Source: an uncultured Armatimonadia bacterium (GTDB lineage Bacteria; Armatimonadota; Zipacnadia; Zipacnadales; CAYWBK01). Taken from it: 46,875 nucleotides of DNA. The position numbers and the translations under genes are program-made. Positions 20,735-38,706 of the stretch are shown piece by piece (within the stretch, counting starts at the first letter, position 1; each line of letters opens with the position of its first letter). The stretch spans positions 1-46,875 of the forward strand of contig CAYWBK010000002.1 in the NCBI GenBank assembly GCA_964455745.1, given 5' to 3'. The notes beneath the pieces were generated by a model. The model ran no database searches and was not told where the DNA came from. It saw nothing but the letters and a program-made list of their open reading frames with translations.

Positions 20735-21730
20735 TCAGCCCCAGACCCTTGCAGTGCTGCTGTCGTAGTAGTGTACCTGTACCGCGGGCCCACCGAACGC
20801 TTGTCGTTCGGCCGCGATCCGCTCGGCGGCCCCCCGGGTGGTTGCGTTACTTGGCGAGTCGGGATCCCCGTAGAGGCCAACGAACAGCCTATCGAGCCCT
20901 CTGGCCTCGGCGATGGCTGCACGGATATGGGCATCGGCGTCCGAGAGGGAGTGGCCGTAGATGACAAGCGTGCCGTCAGTGTTACGCAGAACCTGCATGC
21001 ACGTGCTCAGATACTCGCTGGCCGCGACCCTTGCGGCCTTCGCACCTGCACTGCCCTCGGAGACGAACAGGGGGACCTCGCCAGCAGCCAGCTCGGCTCG
21101 GATGCTTGTCAGCAGCGGATCCGTGCCGCATCGACGACGCTTCACGGTCCAATCGGCGCTCTCGTATAGGTGCAGAGCACCATGTAGATAGAACATCGTG
21201 GCAGTCGAGAGACCGGCTCGCGAAAAAGTCAACAGACCGGGGGCATCTCCCCAGTTCCCGAAGCTGTCCTCCCTCTGTGGGCCCACCTCGTTTAGCACCC
21301 AGTAGAGCAACAGGTCGTAGTTGGTCGTGAAGACTCTGCCGTAGGGCTCGACGAACGCAGCACAGATCTCCATCCGGTCATGGTCTATCGGGGCCCAAGT
21401 GTCCGGGTGTACCACCGTGAGTGCGGCGAGGAACGCCTCTCGTAGCTGGTCCACGCACTGCGAAACAAAGGGAAGCTGGACGCCGAAATGCTGGGCGAGC
21501 CACGCTGCTTCGTTGAACTCCTGCATCACGCCCTCAATGTTGGCCGTGCAGAGGTGGTCAAACACATCAACAAGCTGTTGGTCGATGGCACCGACCTGGG
21601 AGGCCACGTCTACCAGGCTGGTGTAACCGAACCGGGTATCGCAGGCGACGCTGAAACCGTTGCCCAGCAGGAGATGTGGGCAGGTGTTGCCTGCCTGCTG
21701 CATTACGCAGTCGTAGCTGATGACATCCAT
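20735..21730 (-). CDS. SIR2-superfamily-like protein (DUF4917-type) inserted between hsdS and hsdM
   Basis: ATG 21730 has GGGAGG upstream. Motifs are LLLGNGFS, FTTNYDLLLYW and YLHGALHL (the GxGxS / TTNYD / LHG pattern of SIR2-like proteins). Its stop lies 6 nt before the hsdM start. Confidence 0.5.
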   Translation of the reverse strand: MDVISYDCVMQQAGNTCPHLLLGNGFSVACDTRFGYTSLVDVASQVGAIDQQLVDVFDHLCTANIEGVMQEFNEAAWLAQHFGVQLPFVSQCVDQLREAFLAALTVVHPDTWAPIDHDRMEICAAFVEPYGRVFTTNYDLLLYWVLNEVGPQREDSFGNWGDAPGLLTFSRAGLSTATMFYLHGALHLYESADWTVKRRRCGTDPLLTSIRAELAAGEVPLFVSEGSAGAKAARVAASEYLSTCMQVLRNTDGTLVIYGHSLSDADAHIRAAIAEARGLDRLFVGLYGDPDSPSNATTRGAAERIAAERQAFGGPAVQVHYYDSSTARVWG

Positions 21731-21798
21731 TGCCTGGCCTCCCGACGGGATGCACTCTGGCACGTCAACCGGCTCTATCCCTACGGCTGCAACGTGGC

Positions 21799-23322: not shown

Positions 23323-26099
23323 GCCGCCAGCCTCTCATTCAGCTCTGCGAGGATGGGCTGCAGTCGCTCGCCGAACAGCTCATACACCCGGCCCAGTCCG
23401 CCCATCTGTGCGAAGGGAACGTCGTCGAAATCCTGCCGCTCGACGCGAAGGCTCGCCGCGATGTGGTCGCGAATCGCGTCCAGCCACTGCTGCTGCTCCG
23501 GGGTGAACCGGGCACCACCCGCCTCCTGCTCCATAAGCCACTCCTGGTAGCGGTGCTCGACTACCGCCGCCAGGGGCAACAGCGGCTCATCGGGGGTGAT
23601 GGCGTGACGTACCAAGGCGACTAGGTCGGCGATCTGCTTGCCTCCAGGCCCCTTCACCTTCCGGGGCTCTACAGCCGCATAGGCTGCCCAGAGCTGCTCC
23701 GGCTCAGACTGCAGGGGCGGCCGCCTGATGGCTGCGGCCAGGTCCTTGATGTGTCGGAAACGCAAGCCCTCCTGGTATGGACGGCTGTACAGCAGGCGGA
23801 TGCCCTCCAGCTCATCCTTGTTGTCCTCGATGAACTGGCGGAAGCTGGTGATGAGTCCTTTGGCCCTTTCGAGGGTCTTCGGGTCTCCTCCCGCGTAGAG
23901 GAGCTTGTCCTGCGTCACCTCGTCGATGGTCTGTTCCAGCAGTTGCCGGATCTCCAGAATGCGATCCCGTAGCTTCGGGTCTAGGAAGGGCCGTAGGGCC
24001 TGCACGACCATCGCCCTGTTGAGATGGCGGACCTCTTCGCCGGTGGGTTCCCGCCCGATATCCGCGAAGGCCTCAGCAGCCCGCCGCCACTGCTCGTCCG
24101 GGTCCACGCTACGGACGAGGTCAGCAGCCAGAGCCTTGGCATCCTTGCCTTCGGCAACCAGGGACACCTGTGCACGCTGCTCGTCATCCATTTGGCGATC
24201 CAGGCGAATCAGCCGTGAGGCCAGCGTCGATGCGAGACTCGACGTTGCCACCCCTCGTGCCGCCAACTGCAGCAGCTTCTCCAGCGGCACGGTGGGCTGC
24301 CGATCGAGAGGCTTGGTCTCGGTCTTGTCACGGTCACAGACGCCAACCGCGTCGACGATGACGAAGTGGGTCTTCGCCCTGGGGTGGTCCATGACGTGGG
24401 CCATCTCGTCCGCGTCGCAGATCCGTACACCTCGGCCCTTCATCTGCTCGAAGTAGCCCGCCGAGTTGACGTTCCGCATGAACAGTAGGCACTCCAGCGG
24501 CTTCACGTCGGTGCCGGTGGCGATCATGTCCACGGTAACGGCGATTCGTGGAAAGTAGGCGTTGCGGAACTCATTCAGGAGGACGTCCGGCTTCTTCCCA
24601 GTGGTCTTGTAGGTGATCTTCTGACAGAAGTCATTGCCTTTGCCGAACTCCTCTCGGAAGATGCGGGTGATGCCCTCGGCGTGCGAGTCGTCCTTGGCGA
24701 AGACAAGCGTCTTGGGCACCTCGCTCCTGCCCGGGAAGATGGCGGAGCCCGAGGGGCCAGCAGTGAAGAGACGATCTCGGAAGGTGCGGACGACGAGACG
24801 TATCTGGTCCCTGGCGACGACGTCGCGGTCGAGTTGGGCGGCCGTGTAGGTGAGATCGTCGTCCAGTTCTTCATATCGGACGGCACGAGTCCGGCGATCA
24901 CGCCTCGGCACCCGGAACCCCGGGGCCTTCCTCAGCGTCGCCCCCGTCTGGGTGACCTCAGTGTCGATGCGGTAGACGTCGAAGGTCACGTTGACGCCGT
25001 CGGCCACGGCGTCCGCGTGTCCGTATTCCATGACCAGGTTGTTGTCGAAGAACCCGATCGTCTGCTTGGTGGGGGTAGCGGTCAAGCCGATGACGAACGC
25101 GTCGAAGTAGTCCAGCACCTGTCGCCACTGGTTGTAGATGCTACGATGACACTCATCCACGACGATGACATCGAAGGTCTCGACCGGGATGTTCGGATTG
25201 TAGGTGACGGGCTCCGGCTCCCTGTGAATGGCGGCATCGGCCTCGAACCACGACGTCTCATCGTTCTCCTCCGCGTACTCCTCGTGCCCCTGCAGCATCG
25301 AGAACAGCCTCTGAACGGTGGAGATGCACACCCGGGCAGTCGGGTTCAGCACGTTCGACCGCAGGTGCTGGATGACGAACTCCTCGCCAAACGGCCTGCT
25401 GGCCTCCGGGCTGCGGTAGTCCGCGAACCGCTCACGAGCCTGCTTCCCGAGGTTGTTCCGATCTACAAGGAACAACACGCGGCGTGCACCAGCGTGCTTG
25501 ACGAGCCTGTAGACTGTGGCACATGCGACTCGAGTCTTCCCCGAGCCGGTCGCCATCTGGATCAGTGACTTCGGGCGGTTCTCGGCGAGGGACGCCTCCA
25601 GCTTGTGGACGGCCTCGACCTGTACCCGCCACAAGCCGTGAGCGTTGAGCTCGGGGAGCTCCCTCAGCCCCTGGCGGAATTGGCGGTCCAACTGGGCGAG
25701 ACGCCGCAGCTCTTCCGGACGATGGAATGCGAAGACCCGTCGGCTTCGGGGGTCGGGATCCAGGCGGTTGGTGAACTGCGTCTCCACACCCGTGCTCTCG
25801 TAGTGGAACGGCAGCGGGCGGGCATAGACGGGGATGTCCTCGGCGAGGCCATCGAGATACTTCAGCGACTGGACTTCGACTCCGGCGAGGGTGTGACCCT
25901 TCGACTTGGCCTCAACGGCCCCCAGGGCCTTGCCGTCGACGTAGAGCAGGTAGTCGGCGTGACCGGTGGCCAGCGGGAACTCGCGGACGGCGATGCCGGT
26001 CGCGGCCGAGATGTGCATCTGCTGGAGGTCCTGGACGACCCAGCCCGCCGCCGCGAGTTGCTCGTCAATCTCCAGCCTGGCTTCGTCTTCCGGCTTCAT
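23319..26099 (-). CDS. hsdR: Type I restriction enzyme R subunit (HsdR) with an EcoEI-type C-terminal domain
   Basis: N-terminus is EARLEIDEQLAAAGW. Helicase motifs are MATGSGKT and VVDECHRS. The C-terminal region resembles the EcoEI R C-terminal domain. Start at 26099 (AGGGGG upstream) is preferred; 26150 or 26255 are possible. Confidence 0.85.
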   Translation of the reverse strand: MKPEDEARLEIDEQLAAAGWVVQDLQQMHISAATGIAVREFPLATGHADYLLYVDGKALGAVEAKSKGHTLAGVEVQSLKYLDGLAEDIPVYARPLPFHYESTGVETQFTNRLDPDPRSRRVFAFHRPEELRRLAQLDRQFRQGLRELPELNAHGLWRVQVEAVHKLEASLAENRPKSLIQMATGSGKTRVACATVYRLVKHAGARRVLFLVDRNNLGKQARERFADYRSPEASRPFGEEFVIQHLRSNVLNPTARVCISTVQRLFSMLQGHEEYAEENDETSWFEADAAIHREPEPVTYNPNIPVETFDVIVVDECHRSIYNQWRQVLDYFDAFVIGLTATPTKQTIGFFDNNLVMEYGHADAVADGVNVTFDVYRIDTEVTQTGATLRKAPGFRVPRRDRRTRAVRYEELDDDLTYTAAQLDRDVVARDQIRLVVRTFRDRLFTAGPSGSAIFPGRSEVPKTLVFAKDDSHAEGITRIFREEFGKGNDFCQKITYKTTGKKPDVLLNEFRNAYFPRIAVTVDMIATGTDVKPLECLLFMRNVNSAGYFEQMKGRGVRICDADEMAHVMDHPRAKTHFVIVDAVGVCDRDKTETKPLDRQPTVPLEKLLQLAARGVATSSLASTLASRLIRLDRQMDDEQRAQVSLVAEGKDAKALAADLVRSVDPDEQWRRAAEAFADIGREPTGEEVRHLNRAMVVQALRPFLDPKLRDRILEIRQLLEQTIDEVTQDKLLYAGGDPKTLERAKGLITSFRQFIEDNKDELEGIRLLYSRPYQEGLRFRHIKDLAAAIRRPPLQSEPEQLWAAYAAVEPRKVKGPGGKQIADLVALVRHAITPDEPLLPLAAVVEHRYQEWLMEQEAGGARFTPEQQQWLDAIRDHIAASLRVERQDFDDVPFAQMGGLGRVYELFGERLQPILAELNERLAA

Positions 26100-26206
26100 G
26101 CGGCACCCCCTGGGGCACTCTCCAGTCTGTCGGTGCTGGGCTGACGACATGTTCGCTCTCTGCCCCGCCGTGTCCTCCGCTGGTTCACAGATCGGCAACA
26201 ATCGCA

Positions 26207-27469
26207 TCACGGCATCCTTCGGCGGGGAATCGGCGACACATCCGAGGCCGAGCATGGCCTTCTGGCCGAAGCCAACACCCTACATCGTCCCGAGAGCAGA
26301 TCCTCGATCGCCTCCCGTCTCAGCACCTCCAACGCAGCGATGCTCTTCCGACTGGTGCGTTCCACCTCGTCCACGGCCTCGAGGTCTCGAGCGATGCTGA
26401 TCTGCTCTTCGATCGTGGCCGGGATGGGGATCGGGAGATCGCCCAAGGCACCGTGGTCGATGGTGGTCATCCTGGACGCCTTCGCCGTCGACCGCAGGTG
26501 CCGCTCGGCCGCCTCCGTCTGGCAGTAGTGCCACAGGTAGTGTGGCGAGACCCTCTGGACGTCGGGGCAGAACCTGGCGAGGTGGCAGTCGAAGAGGATC
26601 GGCTGTTCGGTGGCCCTCACCAGGATCGAGCGACCGATGCCGTCGGGGATGATCGACGACCGCAGGAACAGGCAATCGCCGGATCCGACGCCGAACCTCT
26701 CGACCTCCGCATCGGTGGCCTCGACCCTCGCCAGGGCTCCGACGTCGAGACCATCCCACGAGAACACGTCCGGTGGCCGGATGATGGGAACCCCGCCCCG
26801 GTCGGCGTCCACCGCACTCGGCCTGAAGACCCCGTTGCGAAGGGGGATCGCAGCGAGGTCCTTCAGCCTGGCGGTGTGCCACACTTCGCCGACAGGGCGG
26901 AACGCTGCCCAGGCCATCGCTCGTGCGACCTCTCGTGATGCTACGATGGTTCGCTCCGTCTCCTCGATCGCCTCATCGATGCTCACCAGCAGGCCGCAGA
27001 TCCAGACCCGTTCGTCCTCGGGTGGTACGAAAATGGGACAGCGTCGCAGTTCGTGCCATGAGGTGCGGGGCATGTCGATGCCCCCGCTCTTCGCGATGGC
27101 GAACCCGATCACGTTCCGACTCTGGCACACGTAGAGCAGGAACTCCGGTTCCAGGTCGTCGTTCGGCACCAGCACCAGGATGTCGGCCGAGCAGCTCCCA
27201 TCGCGGTCGGCGAGGTTCACCTTCCCGAACCGTGGCCGCAGGCCGCTGAACAGGACGTCCCCCCTGTGGCACCTCGCCTTGGCCCCCGAGAGGGCTGGCG
27301 ACTCAGAGACCCGGGCGTACCTCCTGTCGGGCACCATGTCCTCGATCCCGACGTGAGCCCCCATCGCCGGAGCCCTGGTGGCGGGACGCGGGCGACACAG
27401 GTCTCCGAGGGTTCCCACCTTCCACCCCGGGGGCGTCTCACGGGCATGCTCAGGGAGTTGGATCGACAC
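26207..27469 (-). CDS. hsdS: Type I R-M specificity subunit (HsdS, copy 2)
   Basis: PPGWKVGTLGDL start, two TRD-like halves and the conserved ...EEQISIARDLEAVDE...LLSGRCRV end. It overlaps the hsdM2 stop by 20 nt. Confidence 0.75.
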   Translation of the reverse strand: MSIQLPEHARETPPGWKVGTLGDLCRPRPATRAPAMGAHVGIEDMVPDRRYARVSESPALSGAKARCHRGDVLFSGLRPRFGKVNLADRDGSCSADILVLVPNDDLEPEFLLYVCQSRNVIGFAIAKSGGIDMPRTSWHELRRCPIFVPPEDERVWICGLLVSIDEAIEETERTIVASREVARAMAWAAFRPVGEVWHTARLKDLAAIPLRNGVFRPSAVDADRGGVPIIRPPDVFSWDGLDVGALARVEATDAEVERFGVGSGDCLFLRSSIIPDGIGRSILVRATEQPILFDCHLARFCPDVQRVSPHYLWHYCQTEAAERHLRSTAKASRMTTIDHGALGDLPIPIPATIEEQISIARDLEAVDEVERTSRKSIAALEVLRREAIEDLLSGRCRVLASARRPCSASDVSPIPRRRMP

Positions 27470-28958
27470 GCGTCAGCTCCCCCATGCGAGATCGAAGCGT
27501 CGCCATCGCCCGCTCCCGGGCGGTCTCGGCTTCGTCGAGGGCCGCCATCGCGGCGGCCAGGTCCGCCGATTTCTTCGGATCGAAGGTGTCGACGTACCTC
27601 GGAACGCTCAGGATGAACCCCTCGGCGGCGATCTCGTCCATCGCCACCAGGCGACAGTAGCGATCCTCGTCCCGCCCCGACTCGAAGGCCTCCACGATCC
27701 GATCCACGTCCTCCGGCCGCAGGCGATTCCGTCTCCGCACCCGTTCGTAGCCACCGGAGGCGTCGATGAACAGCACTCTGCCCTGCCGTCGCTCCGGCTT
27801 GCGGCGGTTGAAGATGAGCAGGCACGCTGGGATGGAGTTGCCGTGGAAGATGTCCGCTGGCAGCCCGATCACCGCCTCGATGATGTCGTCCTCCAGGATG
27901 GCTCGTCTGATCCGGCCTTCCGATCTCCCCCGGTAGAGCACGCCCTGACTGCACACGACTCCCGCCCGTCCGGACTCGTTCATGCTGGCGATGATGTGCT
28001 GGAGGTAGGCGAAGTCGCCGTTCCCTTTCGGCGGCACGCCGTACGTGAACCGCCCGAAGGGATCATCGCTCAGCTCATCGCATCCCCAGAACTTGTCGGA
28101 GAAGGGGAAGTTGGCGATGACGACGTCGAAGGTCTGCAGTGTCCCGTCCCCTGTCAGGAACTGGGGATCGGTGAGCGTGGAGGCCCCGCCTCGGATCTCG
28201 GCCTCCAGGCCGTGCATCAGCATGTTCATCCTCGCGATTGCCCACGTGCTCCAGTTACGCTCCTGGCCGAACAGCCTCATGGCACGGGCTCCGTCGGACC
28301 CGCTTTGCCGCCGCAAGTGCTCGGCACCGTAGATGAGCATCCCGCCCGAGCCACAGGTGGGGTCGTAGATCGTTGCGTTGGGTGCGGGCTCGAGGATGCG
28401 GATCAGCACCTGGACGATCTCACGGGGGGTGTAGAACTCGCAGCCCCTGGCTCCCGAGTCGTCGGCGAACCTGCCGATGAGGTGCTCGTATCCCCTCCGC
28501 AGGACGTCCGCGTCGACGTTGGCGTCGGAGAGGTCGTGCTTGTCGAACTCGAGTACGAGAGCCCGTAGCACCTCGCCCCCGATGCGGGGCTTCTGGACGC
28601 CGTCGTCGTTCACGGTGGCGTTCCAACTCACGGAGCGGAGGACGGCGTCGAGTTGGGGGTTGGCGGAGCCGACGACGGACATCACATCGTCGAGTCGCCG
28701 CCCGAGCCGATCGGGAGGCGTGTCGGAGAGGTCCTGCCAGGAGCATCCCGGCGGGATCTCGATGCGGCGTGGGCCGTTCTGGCTGCGGGTGGCCCTCCGC
28801 CGTCCGGCCGTCTGGGCTTCGAACTGCGATTGGTCGGCGAGCCGCTTGTAGAACACCAGAGTCAAGATGTGGCTCCTGAACTCCTCCGAATCGATGGAGC
28901 CCCGAAGCACGTCGGCACAACTCCACAGGTGGGTCTCCAGTTGTTGCTGGGTCAGCAT
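27450..28958 (-). CDS. hsdM: Type I R-M methyltransferase subunit (HsdM, copy 2; different subfamily from copy 1)
   Basis: ATG 28958 has GAGGGGA upstream. N-terminus is LWSCADVLRGSIDSEEFRSHILTLVFYKRLAD. Motif I is DPTCGSGGML. Motif IV reads ANFPFS rather than NPPF. Confidence 0.8.
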   Translation of the reverse strand: MLTQQQLETHLWSCADVLRGSIDSEEFRSHILTLVFYKRLADQSQFEAQTAGRRRATRSQNGPRRIEIPPGCSWQDLSDTPPDRLGRRLDDVMSVVGSANPQLDAVLRSVSWNATVNDDGVQKPRIGGEVLRALVLEFDKHDLSDANVDADVLRRGYEHLIGRFADDSGARGCEFYTPREIVQVLIRILEPAPNATIYDPTCGSGGMLIYGAEHLRRQSGSDGARAMRLFGQERNWSTWAIARMNMLMHGLEAEIRGGASTLTDPQFLTGDGTLQTFDVVIANFPFSDKFWGCDELSDDPFGRFTYGVPPKGNGDFAYLQHIIASMNESGRAGVVCSQGVLYRGRSEGRIRRAILEDDIIEAVIGLPADIFHGNSIPACLLIFNRRKPERRQGRVLFIDASGGYERVRRRNRLRPEDVDRIVEAFESGRDEDRYCRLVAMDEIAAEGFILSVPRYVDTFDPKKSADLAAAMAALDEAETARERAMATLRSRMGELTRVDPTP

Positions 28959-29156: not shown

Positions 29157-30872
29157 ATGCCCAGCCTCGTCCTCGACACCCTCAGAGTCCTCCTCCTCGA
29201 CCCTCGCTCCGACCCGTTGGATGTGGGGCTGGCCCTGCACGCCCTGACGCCGGAGGATCTGGCGGGGATAGGGTGCGGATCGCTCAAGGAGCTGTTGGGC
29301 CAAGTATTGCAGAAGAACGGGAAGCCCGAGTACTCCACCGTCATGCGATGGGTTCGAGCCGCCAGCGTGCTCTCCGGCTCCGACGATCCAAGGCGGGAGT
29401 GGGGCATCAGCAGGCTGGCGGAGGTAGCACGATGTTCTGACTCCGGGTCCCGCCGGAAGCTGCTACAGGCCAGGGGAAAGACCATCGGCAGGACGACGGT
29501 GCGGGAACTGCGTGAGGCGGTGGCCGTCCACGGAGCCGAGAGGCGTGACAGCCCCGACGCCGACGAGCCGCACTCCATCCTCGAGCGTGCCATCGAGATC
29601 GCCCTGCGGCACGAGCGGCCGGACGCAGCGGTCGAGATCGAGGTGCAGAGGAGCAAGGGCAAGCGGCCGACCTTCACGGTAGCCGCCAGGGGCGGTGCCA
29701 CCGACGCCGACATGGCCGAGGCACTGGGGACGGCCTCACGGGTCATGTCGGCCATCGCCACGTCCAAGGCCGCATGGCGGAAGGGAGGCCCGAAGCCCAT
29801 CCGGGTCCCCAAGCCCATGCCGGTCGACGACATCCTCGCCCTGCCGCCCAGCCAGCTCGAGGCCAGGTGGCTGGATCCCGACGCGGTGCAGATCACAAAG
29901 GAGGGCACGCCGATCCTGCACCTGCCGGTGGAGCGGTGTGAGCAGACCAACCACCGACTGGTGTGGCCGGAGGGCAACGTCAAGGTCCGGGACGTGTTCG
30001 GCATCATCGATTCCATCAGCCAGGGCTGCCTGCGGATCGCCACCGGTTGGCCTGGCACCCACGAGCCCTGTTTCACGCTCGATGGCAGCCGAACGACCGG
30101 GTGCTACGCCAACCATACCAAATGGGCGGGGATCAGCAGGAGCGAGCACGGTAGCTTCGACGTCATCAGCAACGGCCTCGTGAACCAGCTCATGAAGCTC
30201 CGGCTGCCACTCGATGGTAGCCCCGCCCTCGACCGCCAGACCCGGAGGATGTGGCGGGTGGACGCGGAATCCACCGACGGTGCCCTCTCGGTGTCGCTCG
30301 GAGTCTTCCAGGCTTGGGCGGAGGCGAACCCCGACCACCGCCTCATGACGATCTGCAGCCACCAGTTCAGTCCCTCGGACGAGATGCTCGCGTGGCTTTC
30401 CGCCCTGAGGAATGCCTGGACGGGGCACACGGTGGCGGCAGCCGGACTGTCCCCGGAGGAGGTGGACATGCGGTTCGCCTCCATCCGCCGCTTCCTGGAC
30501 TGGGGCGTCGCCTGTGCCGTGTGGATCGTCACCCACCCCACCTGGGACAACCAGAGCGTGCTCGATCGGGTCCTCGAACTGGTGCCGCCCGAGGCCATCA
30601 TCGAGGCCCCCTACCGTTTCCGAACCCTCGACCAGGCCCTGCCGGTGCTGCACGTCAACCGCCTCGGTGCCTGCAGCGATTATCGCCTCACCCGCTACGG
30701 CGTGGCCTGCCACGTCCGCAGGGACGTCGACCCCCAGACCGGCGAGATCGTCCCCACGCTCGTGGATGCCTCCGACAGCGAGGTGACGCACGCCGCACAC
30801 TCCAAGTGTGGCGGTGGCTGCGAGCTGCTGTGCGGGCTGAACGCCCTCGACCGTCGCAACGCCGCCCGCTGA
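29157..30872 (+). CDS. Protein with a HTH/ParB-like N-terminal region and a C-terminal Cys-rich domain of unknown function (paralogous to the middle of the giant MTase)
   Basis: ATG 29157 has GGAG upstream and the gene is divergent from hsdM2. The C-terminal ~330 aa align by eye with residues encoded at ~33.18-34.2 kb (LKLRLP.DG.P, DG.LS.SLG..QAW.E.NP, FSPSDEML.W, VW..T.P.WDN.S...R.LELVPP..IIEAP, L.L..LGAC.D). Confidence 0.55.
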   Translation: MPSLVLDTLRVLLLDPRSDPLDVGLALHALTPEDLAGIGCGSLKELLGQVLQKNGKPEYSTVMRWVRAASVLSGSDDPRREWGISRLAEVARCSDSGSRRKLLQARGKTIGRTTVRELREAVAVHGAERRDSPDADEPHSILERAIEIALRHERPDAAVEIEVQRSKGKRPTFTVAARGGATDADMAEALGTASRVMSAIATSKAAWRKGGPKPIRVPKPMPVDDILALPPSQLEARWLDPDAVQITKEGTPILHLPVERCEQTNHRLVWPEGNVKVRDVFGIIDSISQGCLRIATGWPGTHEPCFTLDGSRTTGCYANHTKWAGISRSEHGSFDVISNGLVNQLMKLRLPLDGSPALDRQTRRMWRVDAESTDGALSVSLGVFQAWAEANPDHRLMTICSHQFSPSDEMLAWLSALRNAWTGHTVAAAGLSPEEVDMRFASIRRFLDWGVACAVWIVTHPTWDNQSVLDRVLELVPPEAIIEAPYRFRTLDQALPVLHVNRLGACSDYRLTRYGVACHVRRDVDPQTGEIVPTLVDASDSEVTHAAHSKCGGGCELLCGLNALDRRNAAR

Positions 30873-30955
30873 ACGTTTCTCTCCCCGATCGCCGCCACAC
30901 GCCGCTCTTCATGCACGTCACTCGCTGGCTCTGGTGACCGCCTTCGCACGCCTGT

Positions 30956-30983
30956 CGAGGTGGGGATCACGATCCCCACCTCG
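30956..30983 (+). terminator. Strong hairpin (CGAGGTGGGGATC-AC-GATCCCCACCTCG) 3' of gene 29157..30872
   Basis: 13-nt perfect inverted arms about 85 nt after the stop. No clear T-tract. Confidence 0.4.
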
Positions 30984-31301
30984 TGCGGCCTCCTGAGCAT
31001 CCCGTTGACGTCGTCCCATCCATCCCGCCGACCGCCCCGATGGTGACGGTGCCACCGCTCCTCCCTGGCTCCGATGAGGCCCCATCACGCCTTCCCGCCG
31101 CCCTTCCGCCGACCTCGTGAACTCGTCCATCGTCAGTTCCCGTGCCGCGGTTCCCGACGCCTCCATGCCTCCTGGCTCCCGGTTCGCCGACGGGACTCCG
31201 TCCGTCCTGTCACCACTTCGGAGATGCCCAGCTACGGCCTTCCACGACCGTTCTCCTGTGGTTCGGACATGGCATTTTGTCCGCAGATGCCGTCCGGTTC
31301 C

Positions 31302-31597
31302 AACCTGCCTTGCCGGGCCGCCGACCCAGTGCCACCGGGGCTGGAGGTGGTTCCGATTAGCCCGAAGCCGAGGCCCGAATCCAGCCCCATCGCAGCACCG
31401 ATCATGCCATCGTATGGGCACATGTCGTTCGCCCATTCCGACCTGCCTTGCCGGGCCACCCTCCGAGTGCCACCAGCGTCGGAGGTGGTTCACATGAACC
31501 CAGAACCGACGACGCAGGCCACGCCAGTTCATGCGGCATGTGCAGAACGACACTTGCATCCCGACTTGCCTTGCCCCGCTCCCGCCCCGATGCCACA
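31302..31597 (+). promoter_or_regulatory. Island leader motif, copies 2-4 (three tandem units in front of the giant MTase gene)
   Basis: Copies are at 31302-31336, 31440-31474 and 31563-31597. Each is followed by GGAGGTG(G). Copies 3 and 4 are then followed by ATG (31494, 31617). Confidence 0.5.
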
Positions 31598-31616
31598 GGC
31601 GTCGGAGGTGATCCAA

Positions 31617-34600
31617 ATGGATCCCAAAGACAGCGAAGAGATGGGTCAGACGGACGTGCAGAGTCGTGACGAAGAGCAGGTCGTGCGGGCTTACGACCAG
31701 CCGGGAATCAGGCCGAGCACCTGGCGGGTCGTGCCCAACCTGATCGCTCGCCAGTACCGTGCCCTGTTGGAGTCGATCATAGTGTACGGGGTGCAGGTGC
31801 CCATCGTGATCGATGAGCACGGCACGATCATCGACGGCTATCATCGCTGGCGTGCCGCCGTGTGGGCAAAGCGAAGGGACATCCCGTTCACGATCGTCCC
31901 CGGCCTCTCCGAGGCGGGAAAGCGAGAGCTGGCACGCCGTCTCAACCTCGCCCGCAGGCACCCCGGCCCCAGCCAGAGGCGGCAGATCGTAGAGGAGCAG
32001 CTCCGGGAGCGTCCGGATCTGAGCAGCCGAGCAGTGGGACGCCTGTTGGGCGTCGATCACAAGACGGCGTCCAAGGCCCGCAAGCGGCTCGAGGCCGCAG
32101 GCGAGATCCCGGTCGTCACTACCGTCACCGACGAGCACGGGAAGCAGAAGCAGCCAGTCCAGAAGAGCCGGGCCATCCACTGCCGCAGCATCGCCGAAGC
32201 CCAGAGGGCGATCCGGGATGCGACGGAGTTCGGGGATGACCCCATCCCCACTTCCGCCAACGACGCCCGATCGATGGCCAAGGCGGCGGCGAAGCACAAG
32301 AAGGATCGTCTGGATGACGAGGATCTGGCTCGGTACCTCGCCGAGCGGTACTCGGGCGAACTCGAGATCGACAGCGTCCGACGAGAGGACATCCGGAAGC
32401 TCGACCTGCCGGAGGGCAGCGTCGACCTCATCTATACCGACCCTCAGTACCACGAGGATCATCTCGAAACGTACGAAGCCCTCGCCGAGCTGGCGAGCCG
32501 GGTGCTGAAGCCGGGCTGCCTGCTCTTCGTCTACTGCGGCAAGCAGTTTCTGCCGGATGTCATCCAGCGACTCGGCAGCCATCTCGACTACGTGTGGACG
32601 ATGGCCGACGTGTTCGAGACCGGCGACCACGTGGTCGACAGCGTCCGCGTCAAGGAGAAATACCGGACGATCCTCGTCTACAAGCGGCCCGGCGAGACCC
32701 CCAAGCGGGTTCTCGTCCCCGACGCCGTCCACAGCCCCAAGCAGAAGGACGACCACGACTGGCAGAACTCCTGCGAGGCGGCTCGCACGTACATCGAGGC
32801 ATACACCCGTCCCGGCGACGTGGTACTGGATCCCTTCGTGGGCGGCGGCACGGTCCCGGCCGTATGCGTCGAACTCAACCGACACTTCCTGGCCTTCGAC
32901 GCCGATCCGAACGCCGTGAAGCGGACGCTGCGACGACTCGAGAGGATGAGCGGCGACGCGGGCGACGATGTGGGCGACCCAGAGGGCGACGAGGATGACC
33001 CCGACGACGGCGGCCCCGCGGGGACCCCTCCGCCCGACTACGGCCTCCCCGAGTTCGACAGCCCGATCTCGCCGTTCGCCTGGGGTGGCGAGACACCGGC
33101 CGAGGTCGTCGCCGCACGGAACGCCCTGGTCTGCCCCAGCGACGGGGGAACCGGCGACTACGAGCACTTAACGATGGACGAGATCGACGCCCTGCCCGCC
33201 GGACCGCTCACGGTCTCGTGGCGGTCGCCCCAGCTCGTCGACTTCCACAAGGCCGACCGATGGGTGGCGAGCATCCCCGTGAAGCGGGCGAACCTGAAGA
33301 CCTTCTTCCACGCTGAGGGCAGCATCAAGTCCGAGGGGGCGGTGCCCGTCCTCAACGGCCTCTCGAACGGCTGCGGGCGGCGGCTCACGGGCCACGCCAA
33401 CTGCGACCAGCGGTGCTTTCAGGGGCCCGGCAAGTGCTCAGGGTGTTACGCCGATGTCAATCAGTACAGCATCCGCGAGGAAAACCGAGCCAAGGGCTGG
33501 GGCATCGTCCACAACGGCTTCATCACCACCCCGGACGACACGGTCAACGACTGCCTCAAGCTGCGGCTCCCCGGCGATGGGAAGCCCGGCCACTTGACCG
33601 ACCTGATGGCGAACTCCGGCCCCTTCGACCCGCCGATGGTCAGGACCGACTGCGTCTCCAGCGACGGCTCGCTGAGCTTGTCGCTGGGACTGATCCAGGC
33701 GTGGTCGGAGCAGAACCCCAGCGTGCCGTTCTACACGATCAGTTCGGACTACTTCTCGCCCAGCGACGAGATGCTGCGGTGGGCGGCATCGATCCCGACG
33801 CTCTGGGTGGGACATACCCTCAGCCCGTGGTTCTCTGAGATCGAAAACGAGACCCGCCTGGCGGCCATCCGCCGACACCTGGACTTCGGCGTGCCGACCG
33901 TGGTGTGGATCACGACCTCCCCCGACTGGGACAACTGGTCGATCGCCGAGCGGGCACTGGAACTCGTCCCTCCGACCCACATCATCGAGGCCCCACTGCA
34001 GACTTCCAAGCTCAGCAAGCACCTGCCCCTGCTGCACCTGAATCCGCTCGGAGCCTGCGGCGACATGCGGTACGACGGCGATGGACGCCTGGCGACCTTC
34101 GTCGAATGCAAGGGCAAGCAGGTCGCTCACGTGGTGGGCGAGGATGGGCTGGAGCGAGCCAAGGGTCACGTCAGCCCCCGCTGCCGGGGCTGCCGGGTCA
34201 AGTGCGGCTACTACGCCGTCCGTGGGATGGTGGAGGCTGCTGCAGCCGAAGCACCCGTGTGGGTCCCACAGGCGGCCGACGCTGGCCTGATGGGGGGTGC
34301 CGCCCCCCTCGTACAGCCCCTCCCAGGGGCCCATACGCTCGAGATCCGGGACCAGGTCGTCGTGACCGGTGACTGCCTGCGGGTGCTCTCCGAGTATCCC
34401 GACGGCTCGATCTCCGTTGTCGTGACGTCGCCTCCTTACAACCTGAACAAGGACTACGGTTCGGTTGGGGACGATCGTCCGATGGCCGAGTACCTGGACT
34501 GGATGGAAGAGGTATCGGCCGAACTCGCACGAGTCCTTTCGCCGGACGGCTCTCTCTTTCTCAACCTGGGGATCGTCCCCTCCCGGCCGTGGCTCGCGGA

Positions 34601-36263
34601 CGACGTGGTGGCCCGCTTCCGGGACCACTTCGTCCGCCAGAACACCTTCGCCTGGGTGCACTCGCTGCACGACGGTGAGCGGACGAGGGGGCAGTTCAGC
34701 CCGATCAGCTCCCCCCGGTTCGTCAACCGCACCTGGGACCCGGTCTACCACCTGACGAAGACCGGCCGGGTCGAACTCGATCGCCTCGCCGTCGGCGTGC
34801 CCCAGGAGGATCCCCGCAACGCCGAGAGGTTCGAGGGGTCGCAGGACATCCACTGCGGCGGCGACACCTGGTTCATCCCCTACGAGAGGAAAACCAGCCG
34901 TGCCAAGGACAAGGGCAGGCACCCGTGCCTCTTCCCCGTGGAACTCGTCCGCCGGTGCCTCCTGCTGCACGGGGTCGACCGAATCCGCCTGGCTCTCGAC
35001 CCCTTCCTGGGTTCGGGCACGACACTCGTGGCCGCCAGGCGGCTCGGCATCCCCGCCGTCGGGATCGAGCTCGATCCCGACTTCGCAGAGAAGGCGAGAG
35101 AGCGAGTGGCGGAGACCGAGGTCGAACGCACTCCGGCCGAGCCCACGATCCCGGCCAAGCGTGCGGTCGAGCGGGGCGACGGGACTCGACGATCCGTTCG
35201 CAGGAGCGGCACTCAGGGCGACTCCGCCGCCAACGAGACCGATGCCCTCGGGCAGCGGACCCACGTGTGGGTCGACACCACCCAGGTCACTCCCCTCCCA
35301 TCTCGCACGCTGGTCGATCTCTTCTGCGGGGCAGGTGGCATCGGCGAAGGGTTCGGGCAGGCCGGGTTCCGTTCGATCTTCGCGGTGGAGATGGACGAGG
35401 ACGCTGCCGCGACCTACCAGACCAACTTCCCCCATTGTGACCTCGTGCTGGCCGACATCAGGGACCTCACCGACGACGAGATACTGTGCCGCATCGGCGG
35501 CGTGAAGGTGGACGTCGTCTCGGCTGGCTGGCCGTGCCAGGGGATGTCCTCTGCGGGCAAGCGAAATCCGGCCGACCCACGCAACCTGCTATACCGCGAG
35601 GCCGTCCGGGTAGTTCGGCTCCTCCGCCCCCACGTGGTCGTGATGGAGAACGTGCCCGAGCTGCTGGACGGGCGGAACCGAGGCCTATTGGAGGGCCTTC
35701 TGTCGTCGTTGGGCGATGCGGGCTACCCCGACGCCAGCGTGATGCTCCTCGATGCCGCCGACTACGGCGTCCCCCAGCGACGCCTGCGTGCCATCACCAT
35801 CGCCAACCGCGACGGCCTACCGAACCCATATCCGCTGCCCCTCCTGACGCCCGATCACCACGTGACGGCTCGGGAGGCCATCGACGATCTGCTGCTGCGG
35901 CCGAACGACCCGTGGACGAACCACACGCCCGCTCGACACAACGCCGAGACGAAGGCGGATCTCGCGAGCATCCGTGCGGGGGGAAGCGGCTACGAGCGTT
36001 CTCGCCAGGCACGCCGCCCGCTCGACCCGGATGCTCCGGCACCCACGGCGACGTACTGCCACGGGAACGGGTTCGTCCACTACGCCGAGAACCGCATCAT
36101 CACGCCTTTGGAGTACGCACGCCTCCAGGGCTTCCCAGATGAGCACGTGTTCGAGGGCGGCAAGGGCTCCGTCGGCGGTCAGATCTGCAACGCCGTGCCG
36201 CCGCCCTTGGCGAGGTGCATCGCACTGGCGGTGCAGAGCCTGCTGGACGAAGTGGGCGAGTGA
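31617..36263 (+). CDS. Giant fusion protein: ParB-like domain + N6/N4-MTase-like module + Cys-rich DUF + N6/N4 MTase + C5-cytosine MTase
   Basis: ParB: VPIVIDEHGTIIDGYHRWRAA. Module 1: IYTDPQYHED ... VLDPFVGGGT. DUF: NGCGRRLTGHANCDQRCFQGPGKCSGCYAD... Module 2: VVTSPPYNL ... LDPFLGSGTT. C5: DLFCGAGGIG, GWPCQGMS, ENVPELL, QRRLR, CNAVPPPLA. ATG 31617 has GGAGGTG 6 nt upstream; an in-frame ATG 31494 also has an SD. Confidence 0.75.
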   Translation: MDPKDSEEMGQTDVQSRDEEQVVRAYDQPGIRPSTWRVVPNLIARQYRALLESIIVYGVQVPIVIDEHGTIIDGYHRWRAAVWAKRRDIPFTIVPGLSEAGKRELARRLNLARRHPGPSQRRQIVEEQLRERPDLSSRAVGRLLGVDHKTASKARKRLEAAGEIPVVTTVTDEHGKQKQPVQKSRAIHCRSIAEAQRAIRDATEFGDDPIPTSANDARSMAKAAAKHKKDRLDDEDLARYLAERYSGELEIDSVRREDIRKLDLPEGSVDLIYTDPQYHEDHLETYEALAELASRVLKPGCLLFVYCGKQFLPDVIQRLGSHLDYVWTMADVFETGDHVVDSVRVKEKYRTILVYKRPGETPKRVLVPDAVHSPKQKDDHDWQNSCEAARTYIEAYTRPGDVVLDPFVGGGTVPAVCVELNRHFLAFDADPNAVKRTLRRLERMSGDAGDDVGDPEGDEDDPDDGGPAGTPPPDYGLPEFDSPISPFAWGGETPAEVVAARNALVCPSDGGTGDYEHLTMDEIDALPAGPLTVSWRSPQLVDFHKADRWVASIPVKRANLKTFFHAEGSIKSEGAVPVLNGLSNGCGRRLTGHANCDQRCFQGPGKCSGCYADVNQYSIREENRAKGWGIVHNGFITTPDDTVNDCLKLRLPGDGKPGHLTDLMANSGPFDPPMVRTDCVSSDGSLSLSLGLIQAWSEQNPSVPFYTISSDYFSPSDEMLRWAASIPTLWVGHTLSPWFSEIENETRLAAIRRHLDFGVPTVVWITTSPDWDNWSIAERALELVPPTHIIEAPLQTSKLSKHLPLLHLNPLGACGDMRYDGDGRLATFVECKGKQVAHVVGEDGLERAKGHVSPRCRGCRVKCGYYAVRGMVEAAAAEAPVWVPQAADAGLMGGAAPLVQPLPGAHTLEIRDQVVVTGDCLRVLSEYPDGSISVVVTSPPYNLNKDYGSVGDDRPMAEYLDWMEEVSAELARVLSPDGSLFLNLGIVPSRPWLADDVVARFRDHFVRQNTFAWVHSLHDGERTRGQFSPISSPRFVNRTWDPVYHLTKTGRVELDRLAVGVPQEDPRNAERFEGSQDIHCGGDTWFIPYERKTSRAKDKGRHPCLFPVELVRRCLLLHGVDRIRLALDPFLGSGTTLVAARRLGIPAVGIELDPDFAEKARERVAETEVERTPAEPTIPAKRAVERGDGTRRSVRRSGTQGDSAANETDALGQRTHVWVDTTQVTPLPSRTLVDLFCGAGGIGEGFGQAGFRSIFAVEMDEDAAATYQTNFPHCDLVLADIRDLTDDEILCRIGGVKVDVVSAGWPCQGMSSAGKRNPADPRNLLYREAVRVVRLLRPHVVVMENVPELLDGRNRGLLEGLLSSLGDAGYPDASVMLLDAADYGVPQRRLRAITIANRDGLPNPYPLPLLTPDHHVTAREAIDDLLLRPNDPWTNHTPARHNAETKADLASIRAGGSGYERSRQARRPLDPDAPAPTATYCHGNGFVHYAENRIITPLEYARLQGFPDEHVFEGGKGSVGGQICNAVPPPLARCIALAVQSLLDEVGE

Positions 36264-36278
36264 GATGATGGCTCCACG

Positions 36279-36414
36279 ACCTGCCCTGCCCGGCGGAATC
36301 GGGAGTGCCACCACCGGCAGAACGGGGCGGATGGGCACGCCGGGATGGGGTTCGTACCCTCCGCGGCGACCGTCCATCGGAGCTCCCTTGGCCGCGACCT
36401 GGCGGAGTGCCACC
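36279..36414 (+). promoter_or_regulatory. Island leader motif, copies 5-6 (upstream of the P4/D5-type primase gene)
   Basis: 36279-36313 is GACCTGCCCTGCCCGGCGGAATCGGGAGTGCCACC. 36381-36414 is GAGCTCCCTTGGCCGCGACCTGGCGGAGTGCCACC. Both have the 14-nt spacing. Confidence 0.5.
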
Positions 36415-36449
36415 ACGGAGCGTAGCCAACCCAACGTGAGGTGATCGAG

Positions 36450-37967
36450 ATGACATTCGAGCCCAGCACCGACGCGACGAACGCTGCGTTGCCAACCGCC
36501 GAACCGGACGACACCGACGGTGCAGCGGTGCCCGACGAGGTCGAAGACGAGGGCGGCGTCGCCAACCTCGGCGGAGATGACATGAGCCTGGCGGCCGCAT
36601 TCATGCGGTCGCTGGACGACGCCGGTCGCCTGGTCCGCTACTCCACCAAGGATCTGCTGTGGGAGTACGACCACGACAGGGGAGTTTGGCGACGCTTCAC
36701 CGAGAGCGACATGAGGGCGTTCAACGCCGCCCTGTACGAGTTCGTGCGGGATCGCCTGCCAGCGAACCACCGCAACGACCGCAGCACGTCACGCTACCGA
36801 TCCGTCCGTCGAGTCCTGTTCGACACGCTCGGGGACTACCACGTCGCCCCGGATGAGTTCGACGTCGACTCCAACCTGATCGCCTTCCGCAATGGCGTCT
36901 ACGACCTCGAGCGGGACGTCCTGCTGCCCCACGATCCGTCCCACATGCTGACCAGCACCCGCGACTACGACCACGACCCGAAGGCCACCTGCCCGAGGTT
37001 TGTGCGGTTCCTGGAGGAGGTGCTGGTTCGTCGTCTGGACCCCACCGACGAGACCAGCCCGCTGGTGCCCGATCGTCAGCTCTGGCTACTCGTGCAGGAG
37101 ATGATGGGCTACTCGTTCGCCACCCACTGTCGGGCAGAGAAGGTCTTCTTCATGTATGGCGATGGACGCAACGGCAAGTCCGCCCTGATTCGGGTCCTCT
37201 GCCAAGTCGTGGGAGAGCACAACGTCTGCGACTTCGACGTGCGTGAGATCGGCAACTCCCAGATGAACGACCGGCTCATCGGCAAGCTGGTCGCCGTCCA
37301 GACCGAGCTGGATGCCGGGACGACGATCCCCGACGCACGCCTGAAGGCGATGGCGTCCGGCGAGGGCATGACGGCGAAGGTGGTCTACGAGAAAGTGGTC
37401 TCCTTCCACCCCTTCGCGACCCTCATCATGGCGGGCAACAACCTGCCCACGACCCGCGATCGATCCAAGGGCTTCTGGGCTCGCACGGTCGTGATCCCCT
37501 TCCTGGCCACGTTCGAGGGCGACGCCGCCGATGCCAACCTGCAGGATCGATTCCTTCCCGAACTCGCCGGTGTCTCCAACTTCGCCGCCGAGGGCTACCG
37601 CCGCCTGCGGGACAACGGCTGGCGGTTCACCGAGGCCGCCACCAGCGTTCAGGCGACGCTGCGGTACCGAGAGGAGACCGACAGCGTCCTCTCGTGGTTC
37701 GACGACTCCCTGCGGGCGGCGACGGCCACCATCAAGGTCCAGACGGCGGACCTGTTCGACAGCTACTCGGAGTACTGCCGACGCTTCCGGTTCGCCGCCG
37801 ACAACCTCACCCGCTTCTCCAAGAGAATCAGGCAGATCGTGGACGCCCGTGAGGGGCAGGCGTGGTCGACTGCCGCCGATGGCGGCACCCCCTTCTCGAT
37901 GGCCTTCCACCGAGCCGCCAGCTCCAGGGGCTACGTCGGCACGTTCCAGCTCGTCTCGGAGCCGTAG
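36450..37967 (+). CDS. Phage/plasmid primase, P4 family C-terminal / D5-like SF3 helicase protein
   Basis: GAGGTG lies 6 nt upstream of ATG 36450. D5_N-like NLIAFRNGVYDL, Walker A GDGRNGKS, then ...LIMAGNNLP and the WR..V.PF pattern. Confidence 0.7.
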   Translation: MTFEPSTDATNAALPTAEPDDTDGAAVPDEVEDEGGVANLGGDDMSLAAAFMRSLDDAGRLVRYSTKDLLWEYDHDRGVWRRFTESDMRAFNAALYEFVRDRLPANHRNDRSTSRYRSVRRVLFDTLGDYHVAPDEFDVDSNLIAFRNGVYDLERDVLLPHDPSHMLTSTRDYDHDPKATCPRFVRFLEEVLVRRLDPTDETSPLVPDRQLWLLVQEMMGYSFATHCRAEKVFFMYGDGRNGKSALIRVLCQVVGEHNVCDFDVREIGNSQMNDRLIGKLVAVQTELDAGTTIPDARLKAMASGEGMTAKVVYEKVVSFHPFATLIMAGNNLPTTRDRSKGFWARTVVIPFLATFEGDAADANLQDRFLPELAGVSNFAAEGYRRLRDNGWRFTEAATSVQATLRYREETDSVLSWFDDSLRAATATIKVQTADLFDSYSEYCRRFRFAADNLTRFSKRIRQIVDAREGQAWSTAADGGTPFSMAFHRAASSRGYVGTFQLVSEP

Positions 37968-38261: not shown

Positions 38262-38706
38262 CATCGAGGTCCCCGATGGCCGTCATCTCGACCATCGTGG
38301 CCTTCCGACACGAAGAGCGGTTCTGACCTGCCCTGCCGCGAGAGCTCGGAGTGCCACCATGCCCCGAGACGACATGAGCAGGAACCACACCATGTCGCAG
38401 ACGCACATCGTCGGCCGCAGTGGCGGCCGGGAGGAGGAATGTGCAACGACGACCGACACGGCCGTGCGAACGATCAAGCTCGAGGGAGTCGATGGCCGCC
38501 ATCTCGACCGTCCTGCCCTCCCGACACGAATGGCCATCCCGACCTGCCTTGCCCCGAGAAGTCGGAGTGCCACCATGCCCCGAGACGACATGAGGCCGAA
38601 CGGGACCATGTCGCAGACGCACATCATCGGCCGCATCTGCGGCCATCAGGAGGAATGCTCAATGGCAACCGACACGGCCGTGCAGACGATCAACATCGAC
38701 GGAATC
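38262..38706 (+). repeat. 216-nt tandem direct repeat (~2 copies) containing leader-motif copies 7 and 8
   Basis: Units start at 38275 and 38491 (GATGGCCGYCATCTCGACC...). Motif copies are at 38325-38375 and 38541-38591. Each unit ends with AGGAGGAATG and the first ~14 codons of the downstream gene. Confidence 0.85.

Follow-up and report, generated by a model that had tools for sequence, protein, structure and literature searches.

Radical S-adenosylmethionine (SAM) enzymes bind a [4Fe-4S] cluster through a CX3CX2C loop that follows the first strand of the barrel and ends at the first helix, and their SAM-binding motifs (GGE after strand 2, a ribose motif, and GxIxGxxE) are loosely conserved across the superfamily. 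A SPASM or twitch domain adds a cysteine motif of the CX2CX5CX3C type and one or two extra iron-sulfur (Fe-S) clusters. The radical SAM enzymes known to act on DNA are of only two kinds, the spore photoproduct lyase and the gp53 isomerase of phage M6 (PMC8989533). The Gp37/Gp68 proteins (DUF5131, PF07505) are listed as a radical SAM subgroup (PMC9477430), and fusions of ParB-like domains with DNA methyltransferases are found among the polyvalent proteins of mobile elements (PMC5512222). Here we describe a cysteine-rich domain of ~340 residues, labeled X, that occurs twice in a genomic island of an uncultured Armatimonadia bacterium (assembly GCA_964455745.1, contig CAYWBK010000002.1, positions 1 to 46,875); "the window" denotes this whole stretch of 46,875 nucleotides, and coordinates are window positions. 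One copy forms the C-terminal part of a protein that we call gene1, and the other is embedded in a giant multidomain DNA methyltransferase encoded just downstream. We tentatively propose, as a possible reading of the conservation pattern, predicted fold, and gene neighborhoods, that X is a new, divergent radical SAM–like Fe-S enzyme pair acting on DNA alongside the methyltransferases of the element.

A preliminary description of the window, made by reading the letters alone, had claimed that a cysteine-rich domain occurs there both free-standing and inside a giant methyltransferase, and this is borne out. BLASTP of gene1 (open reading frame [ORF] 29157-30869, 571 aa) against the 1729-aa ORF at 31074-36260 gave a single strong and significant alignment (E = 5e-47), which pairs residues 221-564 of gene1 with residues 699-1049 of the giant ORF over 364 columns at 36% identity and 49% positives. 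Every one of the matching blocks that had been picked out by eye falls within this alignment. The features concerned are the following:

29157..30872, + strand: gene1, 571 aa (ORF list); full-length homologs of 567-594 aa at 42-74% identity; AlphaFold2 (AF2) model with a predicted local distance difference test score (pLDDT) of 83.7
gene1 layout, + strand: helical N-terminal region, aa 1-125; alpha-beta-beta-alpha linker module, aa 138-205; X, aa ~221-571
29568..29771, + strand: alpha-beta-beta-alpha module upstream of X in gene1 (hhalign; pLDDT ~90)
29817..30869, + strand: X, free copy (BLASTP against the embedded copy; hidden Markov model [HMM] envelope aa 231-571; family-consensus residues kept)
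33168..34253, + strand: X, embedded copy (ORF aa 699-1060; BLASTP; AF2 mean pLDDT 85.7, predicted template modeling score [pTM] 0.88; carries E163V and N211T)

No match specific to X was found with either window copy in Pfam-A, NCBIfam 20.0, PHROGs, or PADLOC, and 55 members of the family scanned one by one at E ≤ 1 likewise matched no X-specific family. Searches of PDB sequences with a single X sequence and with two profiles gave only chance-level matches (e.g., SdiA and Argonaute), so that the earlier labeling of X as a domain of unknown function stands. Word-indexed searches of 5.8 billion proteins returned 14 and 13 matches, and an HMM search run exhaustively against 1.84 billion cluster representatives returned 76, of which 58 had E ≤ 1e-10; in the source databases the X proteins are labeled "hypothetical" or are nameless. 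The free, embedded, and phage-type forms of X had no tblastn match among 50,697 phage and 72,556 plasmid records. Back-translated patterns confirmed no X locus in GTDB genome contigs or IMG/VR, an absence that counts as weak evidence because these scans were pattern-limited, and literature searches found no description of the domain. Judged from these searches, X is a rare, previously undescribed domain family. A distant branch, at E 1e-5 to 1e-8, comprises the metagenomic proteins P0083 (2138 aa), P0086 (2114 aa), P0091 (1785 aa), and P0085 (1003 aa), which are without any Pfam domain and have an altered cysteine pattern (G-C-x-R, C-Y-G-G-D-C, and I-C-C) that still places three cysteines in the same loop with other spacing; they appear to be a sister branch of the X family. 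The 873-aa protein P0092 contains 12 tandem repeats of ~65 aa, each weakly matching 26 residues of the X profile (positions 138-164), and is probably a spurious repeat match rather than a member.

For conservation, 57 full-length X domains drawn from all homologs found were aligned, and residues are numbered here as in the embedded copy. Seven cysteines (C69, C83, C93, C297, C339, C342, and C346) are conserved in 93-98% of the 57 domains. The first three form an N-terminal triad, G-C-x-R ... C ... C-(Y/F)-A with the spacing C-x13-C-x9-C, present in 98% of the domains; the other four form a C-terminal tetrad, NP-x-G-x-C ... C-x2-C-x3-C-G. In the window they lie as follows:

30027..30104, + strand: cysteine triad of the free copy, C291, C305, and C316-Y-A (SQGC / HEPC-F / TGC-YA), equivalent to C69, C83, and C93 of the embedded copy
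30672..30833, + strand: cysteine tetrad of the free copy, C506, C551, C555, and C559
33372..33446, + strand: cysteine cluster of the embedded copy, conserved triad C69, C83, and C93 with the extra C79 and C90
34056..34205, + strand: cysteine tetrad of the embedded copy, C297, C339, C342, and C346

Both window copies thus keep all seven family cysteines. The preliminary description, which had the free copy retaining only the flanking GC...GCYA cysteines, was wrong in detail, as the central C305 and the C-terminal tetrad are present. The C-x3-C-x6-C-x2-C string that it had singled out in the embedded copy is a local elaboration and not a family signature, because C79 is found in 60% of members and not in the free copy, and C90 occurs only in the embedded window copy and its closest relative, P0029 (77% identical), and is absent from the free copy; the family as a whole does not conserve the extra C-x3-C and C-x2-C pairs of the embedded copy. 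Further conserved residues are K54, R71, N116, R159, D161, E163, S164, Q177, S193, G215, S219, R230, R236, and T250. At ~20 positions a polar or charged residue is kept by at least 85% of members, even among copies sharing only 30-40% identity. H216 is variable, and many members have T, S, G, V, or N instead.

At two conserved positions the embedded window copy departs from the family. Position 163 is E in 91% of the domains and position 211 is N in 95%, and V at the former and T at the latter are found only in the embedded window copy and P0029 (2 of 57 in each case; codons at window positions 33654-33656 and 33798-33800). The gene1 copy keeps E and N at the equivalent positions. In the AF2 model, E163 comes just past the end of strand 3, on the face presumed to carry the active site, and the embedded copy in the lineage of the window may be catalytically altered, with gene1 carrying the consensus site. 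That the embedded copy is generally a dead paralog was rejected as a rule, given that the two substitutions are confined to these two proteins; the fused or embedded copies P0048, P0052, and L001 keep both E163 and N211.

AF2 models of the embedded X domain (with an alignment of 29 sequences) and of full-length gene1 (with 27 sequences) show the same X architecture, a barrel-like core of repeated beta-alpha units followed by a C-terminal beta-hairpin subdomain. The modeled domain begins with a small beta-hairpin sheet and a short strand (around VLNGLS), after which comes the cysteine loop, with a pLDDT of ~70; values this low are expected for a cofactor loop modeled without its cofactor. The first helix begins right after C93-Y-A, and the triad therefore lies after the first strand and up to the first helix, the position in which radical SAM enzymes carry their cysteine loop. 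The beta-alpha repeats have strands at 131-135, 158-160, 188-192, 212-218, 244-250, and 272-276, and the C-terminal part contains C297, beta-hairpins at 308-330, C339-x2-C342-x3-C346-G, and a terminal helix. In the model and alignment taken together, P135, D161/E163/S164, S193, G215/S219, T250, and E274/P276 are found at or just after the C-terminal ends of strands. The active site of barrel enzymes is usually at these strand ends, and the model would place the conserved X residues at that location.

Foldseek searches, which the preliminary description had suggested for both copies, returned mostly radical SAM enzymes as the best matches, at weak scores (TM ~0.3). For the embedded copy, the best matches in the PDB include SkfB (E 0.024, probability 0.97), NifB, lysine 2,3-aminomutase (LAM), and viperin, and most of the best 15 in BFVD are annotated as radical SAM enzymes or Fe-S oxidoreductases, among them, as the best named match, a protein of Campylobacter virus IBB35 (probability 1.00, root-mean-square deviation 3.4, 130 columns), QueE, an AslB-type enzyme, and NrdG. 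The free-copy model gave SuiB, SkfB, LAM, NifB, LipA, and Cfr as its best PDB matches. Nonradical TIM barrels (amidohydrolase, KGPDC, and xylanases) are also among the weak matches. The three fold searches weakly agree on a radical SAM–type class for the predicted fold. The C-terminal hairpins and the tetrad resemble twitch or SPASM domains, in keeping with SkfB and SuiB as top matches; none of the 55 members matched SPASM in Pfam. A metal or Fe-S cluster role, as hinted at by the earlier remark that the signature recalls Fe-S or Zn cluster motifs, is plausible given the seven conserved cysteines and the closest predicted fold.

The free and embedded copies are ancient paralogs kept as a pair. 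A neighbor-joining tree groups the free copies of different loci in a single clade, and an identity matrix gives 46-83% among these and 34-44% between embedded and free copies; a recent tandem duplication was rejected because the free copies are closer to one another than to their embedded neighbors. Retention of an ancient duplication as a pair suggests nonredundant roles and possibly a heteromer. Elsewhere, X is found stand-alone (295-340 aa), in the gene1 type with a ~220-aa N-terminal extension (567-594 aa), and in fusions: ParB_N with X (P0039, P0041, P0045, and P0050), ParB_N with an N6_N4 methyltransferase (MTase) and X (P0029), X followed by an N6_N4 MTase (P0048 and P0075), and an MTase followed by X (P0052). 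Gene1-type and ParB-X-type proteins have in common an alpha-beta-beta-alpha module of ~80 aa just upstream of X (hhalign 97%, E 1e-10), and it is only this module adjoining X that they share; hhalign detected no relation between the gene1 N terminus and ParB_N.

We followed the gene1-type protein on contigs of the Armatimonadota metagenome-assembled genome locus L001/L002 and of L007, L009, and L010/L011. In all five loci with enough downstream DNA (four distinct, two being near-identical), the gene1-type gene is followed by a ParB_N protein and then by a C5 methylase, and a six-frame HMM scan placed a second X inside this ParB_N protein, which is 800-1000 aa long. The module gene1-type, ParB-X(-MTase), C5 MTase is present in the window, L001/L002, L007, L009, and L010, and in L007, as in the window, a D5_N primase comes after it. 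This constancy of order indicates that the two-copy layout is a conserved module, of which the giant ORF of the window is the fused version. The association of X with DNA MTases and ParB-like regions, noted from the window in the preliminary description, extends to fusions in several unrelated metagenomic proteins and to these recurring loci. Upstream of the module in the related loci are restriction or defense genes (type I hsdMSR, HARE-HTH/EVE, Mrr_cat, or a type III–like set), and readers or restrictors of modified DNA travel beside the multimethylase module. A HARE-HTH protein lies between type I hsdM and the module in L001, L002, L010, and L011; L010 and L011 have this protein fused to EVE and NmeDI_C and carry a DUF8426-Mrr_cat gene as well. 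Stand-alone X genes are found on phage-like contigs with many small ORFs and homing endonucleases. In one phage lineage (L013-L015), the gene immediately upstream of such an X encodes a 264-aa protein (L013 3270-4064) with the motifs QFYTT, DPFAGNW, and NPPY, which from these motifs is a probable N6-adenine DNA methylase; its Pfam matches are sub-threshold (Eco57I, E 0.016; N6_Mtase, E 0.044), and there was no precomputed call.

The protein that houses the embedded copy has the domain order ParB_N-like region, helix-turn-helix (HTH), N6/N4 MTase 1, X, N6/N4 MTase 2, and C5 MTase:

31617..36263, + strand: giant multidomain methyltransferase (Pfam and NCBIfam matches; open frame from 31074, 1729 aa)
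31758..31964, + strand: ParB N-terminal-like region (ORF aa ~229-297; Pfam ParB_N E 0.058, below threshold; NCBIfam parB_part E 7e-4)
32361..32933, + strand: N6/N4 MTase 1 (ORF aa ~430-620; DPQY, VLDPFVGGG; Methyltransf_25, Methyltransf_11, PRK13699)
34341..35123, + strand: N6/N4 MTase 2 (SPPY motif; best stretch of Pfam N6_N4_Mtase, aa 1113-1342, full model)
35301..36260, + strand: C5 cytosine DNA MTase (Pfam DNA_methylase 2.6e-57, aa 1413-1720; TIGR00675)

Its start is likely the ATG at 31617 (MDPKDSEE), which has GGAGGTG 8 nt upstream and would give a protein of ~1548 aa. The first ~180 codons of the longer frame (31074-31616) overlap repeats, are without homolog support, and are probably noncoding. 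ParB_N is also weak in the orthologous proteins of L007 and L010 and reaches E 4e-5 in P0029, and Pfam N6_N4_Mtase matches the giant protein as a whole at E 1.3e-52. The PADLOC model mad2 matches MTase 1 (ORF aa 435-556, E 1.9e-33), and no MADS model matched the other window proteins scanned against PADLOC; a MADS defense system was rejected, as mad2 is the N6 methylase of MADS and its match covers the first methylase domain only.

How X might work can be pictured from these observations. X would be an Fe-S, radical SAM–like partial (beta/alpha) barrel, in which the triad loop C-x13-C-x9-C-(Y/F)-A, right after the first barrel strand, would hold a site-differentiated [4Fe-4S] cluster near the active site, and the tetrad in the C-terminal beta-hairpin subdomain would bind either another cluster or a zinc ion, much as a twitch or SPASM extension does. 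ParB_N and HTH modules would bring X to DNA, where it would act in the same polypeptide or operon as the N6/N4 and C5 DNA methyltransferases that integrative elements and phages encode. The gene1 copy and the embedded copy, as ancient paralogs, would probably form a hetero-oligomer that is likely to modify DNA or edit a methylated base, thereby marking or protecting the DNA of the element. A sharper form of the proposal makes X an unrecognized radical SAM–like branch, a heteromer of two paralogs tethered to ParB/HTH and MTase domains, that installs an undescribed DNA modification (e.g., a radical alteration of a methylated base or C-H functionalization of a nucleobase) for restriction evasion or self-marking; in this detail we regard it as unlikely.

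Several observations weigh against a radical SAM–like enzyme acting on DNA. The fold matches of X all have E ≥ 1e-3 (0.002-0.08), with TM-scores of only 0.18-0.33. The canonical CX3CX2C is absent from the family, where the triad has the spacing C-x13-C-x9-C, and neither GGE nor GxIxGxxE is recognizable by eye in the model or the alignment: (R)LPxDG, in which P135 is conserved at 98%, closes strand 2, strand 4 reads ISSDYF, and strand 5 reads vGHTlS, none of which matches a textbook motif. No radical SAM model of Pfam or NCBIfam (PF04055 and related) was matched by the 55 members at E ≤ 1 or by either window protein. DNA as the substrate is an argument from guilt by association, and two loci do not share the association: the stand-alone X of L004 has no methylase nearby and an HD-domain gene upstream, and a solo X in L003 lies among glycoside hydrolases with no obvious partner. 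The loss of E163 and N211 from the embedded window copy means that at least one copy may not be catalytic.

The lack of recognizable SAM-binding motifs would suit a different enzyme, a nonradical metalloenzyme on DNA (hydrolase, nuclease, glycosylase, or transglycosylase) that nicks, excises, or exchanges bases beside the MTases and whose cysteines bind structural zinc or a redox-inert Fe-S cluster. The acidic and polar residues that are conserved where strands end (D161, E163, S164, H216, T217, and N292), the amidohydrolase, KGPDC, and xylanase barrels among the weak Foldseek matches, and the report of methylase-fused ParB_N domains as nickases or NTPases (PMC5512222) are in line with it. We nevertheless find it doubtful, since radical SAM enzymes rather than hydrolases dominate the top of the three fold searches, three plus four cysteines with the triad right after the first strand are typical of a radical SAM enzyme with an auxiliary cluster, and H216 varies across members. 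Catalysis could also be dispensed with altogether, X being a cysteine-stabilized module for DNA recognition or assembly that sets MTase specificity or oligomerization, with gene1 as the regulatory or specificity subunit. The insertion of X between methylase domains, E163V and N211T in the embedded window copy, the HTH-like helical N terminus of gene1 in its AF2 model, and a paralog pair suggestive of a dimerization interface would all fit. Such a role is, however, quite unlikely in view of the ~20 conserved polar or charged positions, which persist even in stand-alone phage proteins of 300-340 aa without a methylase domain of their own; several of these residues lie at strand C termini, as in an active site, and the methylase-fused P0048, P0052, and L001 retain E163 and N211.

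Two further proposals fare less well. If X acted on a small molecule, a protein, or RNA, for instance by making or consuming a metabolite related to SAM or a modified nucleotide precursor, metabolic coupling would account for its linkage to methylases. QueE, NrdG-type activases, and maturases of ribosomally synthesized and posttranslationally modified peptides among the fold matches, stand-alone copies without DNA-binding partners, and the HD-domain protein upstream of X in L004 are compatible with this, but several independent architectures join X covalently to ParB_N/HTH and to DNA methylases, which is hard to explain for a small-molecule enzyme and makes the proposal improbable. Membership of X in DUF5131 would follow the resemblance that the preliminary description had seen in the GC...CxxCYA signature. 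A G-C ... C-Y-A loop near the N terminus is common to both families, both are found in phages and mobile elements, and DUF5131 is a radical SAM subgroup (PMC9477430). As a reference we took gp50 of Erythrobacter phage R6L (PF07505 E = 3e-71; GC-x6-C-x2-C-YAE), collected its homologs, and aligned 25, in which C29, C36, C39, Y40, and A41 are invariant and the N-terminal motif is NPW-x-GC-x6-C-x2-C-YA. The comparison of X with this alignment by hhalign gave a probability of 0.24% at default settings; the 57-sequence X alignment with greedy settings gave 2.2% (E 0.021), with C83...C93-YA of X collinear with GC...C-x2-C-YA of DUF5131 over 227 columns. PF07505 was matched by none of the 55 members at E ≤ 1, and no protein named Gp37/Gp68 or DUF5131 is among the 50 best BFVD fold matches. 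The C-x2-C pair is found in just 2 of the 57 X domains, X shares with the DUF5131 motif only the final Cys-Y/F-A, and the signature that had prompted the suggestion depends on the nonconserved C90; DUF5131 is also without the C-terminal tetrad. With neither profile comparison significant, membership was rejected and we consider it highly improbable; a very distant kinship at the superfamily level could still exist.

The X module lies inside a large island bounded at one end by tRNA-Asn, which closes an rRNA operon with the order 16S, tRNA-Ile, tRNA-Ala, 23S, 5S, and tRNA-Asn. Neither another att copy nor another tRNA 3′ end was found within the window. The features on this side of the module are:

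36441..37967, + strand: D5_N/DUF5906 primase-helicase-like gene (Pfam)
40561..42246, + strand: large serine recombinase at the island end (Pfam Resolvase, Recombinase, Zn_ribbon_recom; 3′ end overlaps tRNA-Asn)
42205-42279, minus strand: tRNA-Asn (tRNA prediction)
42341-42457, minus strand: 5S rRNA
42572-45671, minus strand: 23S rRNA, followed by tRNA-Ala and tRNA-Ile
from 46412, minus strand: 3′ part of 16S rRNA

To the left of gene1 (window 145-29303) is a dense defense-type neighborhood with two type I restriction-modification gene sets:

145-2640: AAA_13 ATPase
15983-18037: WD40-TIR protein
19241-20728: type I hsdM
20735-21922: DUF4917/SIR2-like gene, inserted between hsdM and hsdS
21799-23322: type I hsdS
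23319-26255: type I hsdR
26207-27469 and 27450-28958: second hsdS/hsdM pair

The DNA at the 5′ end of the long methylase ORF is repetitive:

31298..31632, + strand: three ~74-nt direct repeats, upstream of the giant methylase (repeat family D2)

Copies 2 and 3 contain a CCACC/GGTGG hairpin followed by GGAGGTG, 8 nt, and ATG, and the repeats are probably leader or regulatory DNA. The core GAGTGCCACC has five occurrences, all on the + strand at 31.4-38.6 kb (0.2 expected). The repeated motif is also found at 36303-36312, 36405-36414, and 38264-38695, where copies precede the primase gene and a small gene (MATDTAVQT start), and the stretch at 38.3-38.7 kb contains a tandem pair of 216-nt copies with 81% identity. 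Rfam gave no match to the motif when 28.8-40.6 kb was scanned; the motif may serve the element as a common leader or operator.

If X is indeed a third DNA-acting Fe-S barrel, unrecognizable by sequence and tied to ParB and three DNA MTases, it would represent new DNA modification chemistry in the arms race between mobile elements and restriction, would extend the known cluster-binding motifs of the radical SAM superfamily, and would provide a family now annotated as "hypothetical" with a name and with a function open to testing. The paired-paralog design suggests an obligate two-subunit machine. Were X nonradical, it would still be a new conserved partner of mobile-element methyltransferases.

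Among described systems, DUF5131 resembles X in its N-terminal G-C ... C-Y-A cysteine loop, in its occurrence in phages and mobile elements, and in having no assigned function. Its loop is GC-x6-C-x2-C-YA as opposed to C-x13-C-x9-C-YA in X, it is common (more than 8000 matches) whereas X is very rare (76 representatives), and the C-terminal cysteine tetrad and N-terminal beta-hairpin subdomain are features of X that it does not have. The best structural matches of both X copies are radical SAM enzymes with a twitch or SPASM domain (SkfB 6EFN and SuiB 5V1Q; also NifB, LAM, viperin, and LipA). These share with X the order of strand, cysteine loop, helix, and beta-alpha repeats, and a cysteine-bearing C-terminal beta-hairpin with a helix, such that in X, too, three cysteines would serve one cluster and four another. 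X differs from them in having no CX3CX2C, no profile match, and no recognizable SAM motifs, at fold E values of 0.02-0.08 and a TM-score of ~0.3, and in its fusion to ParB and DNA methylases, for which the twitch/SPASM enzymes offer no known parallel. The spore photoproduct lyase and phage M6 gp53 provide a precedent for Fe-S/SAM radical chemistry on DNA, including postreplicative phage hypermodification (PMC8989533). Unlike X, both have the canonical CxxxCxxC, are radical SAM enzymes by sequence, and are unfused to ParB or methylases; spore photoproduct lyase is absent from the 50 best PDB fold matches of X. The survey of polyvalent proteins (PMC5512222) contains in its text none of the terms radical SAM, Fe-S, cysteine-rich, or TIM barrel and describes no paired free-plus-embedded paralogs. 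The giant ORF nonetheless follows the logic of the ParB-MTase fusions in that survey, with several DNA-modifying domains in one mobile-element polypeptide: a weak ParB_N-like region, two N6_N4_Mtase domains, and one C5 DNA_methylase domain, encoded in an element with a D5-type primase and a serine recombinase.

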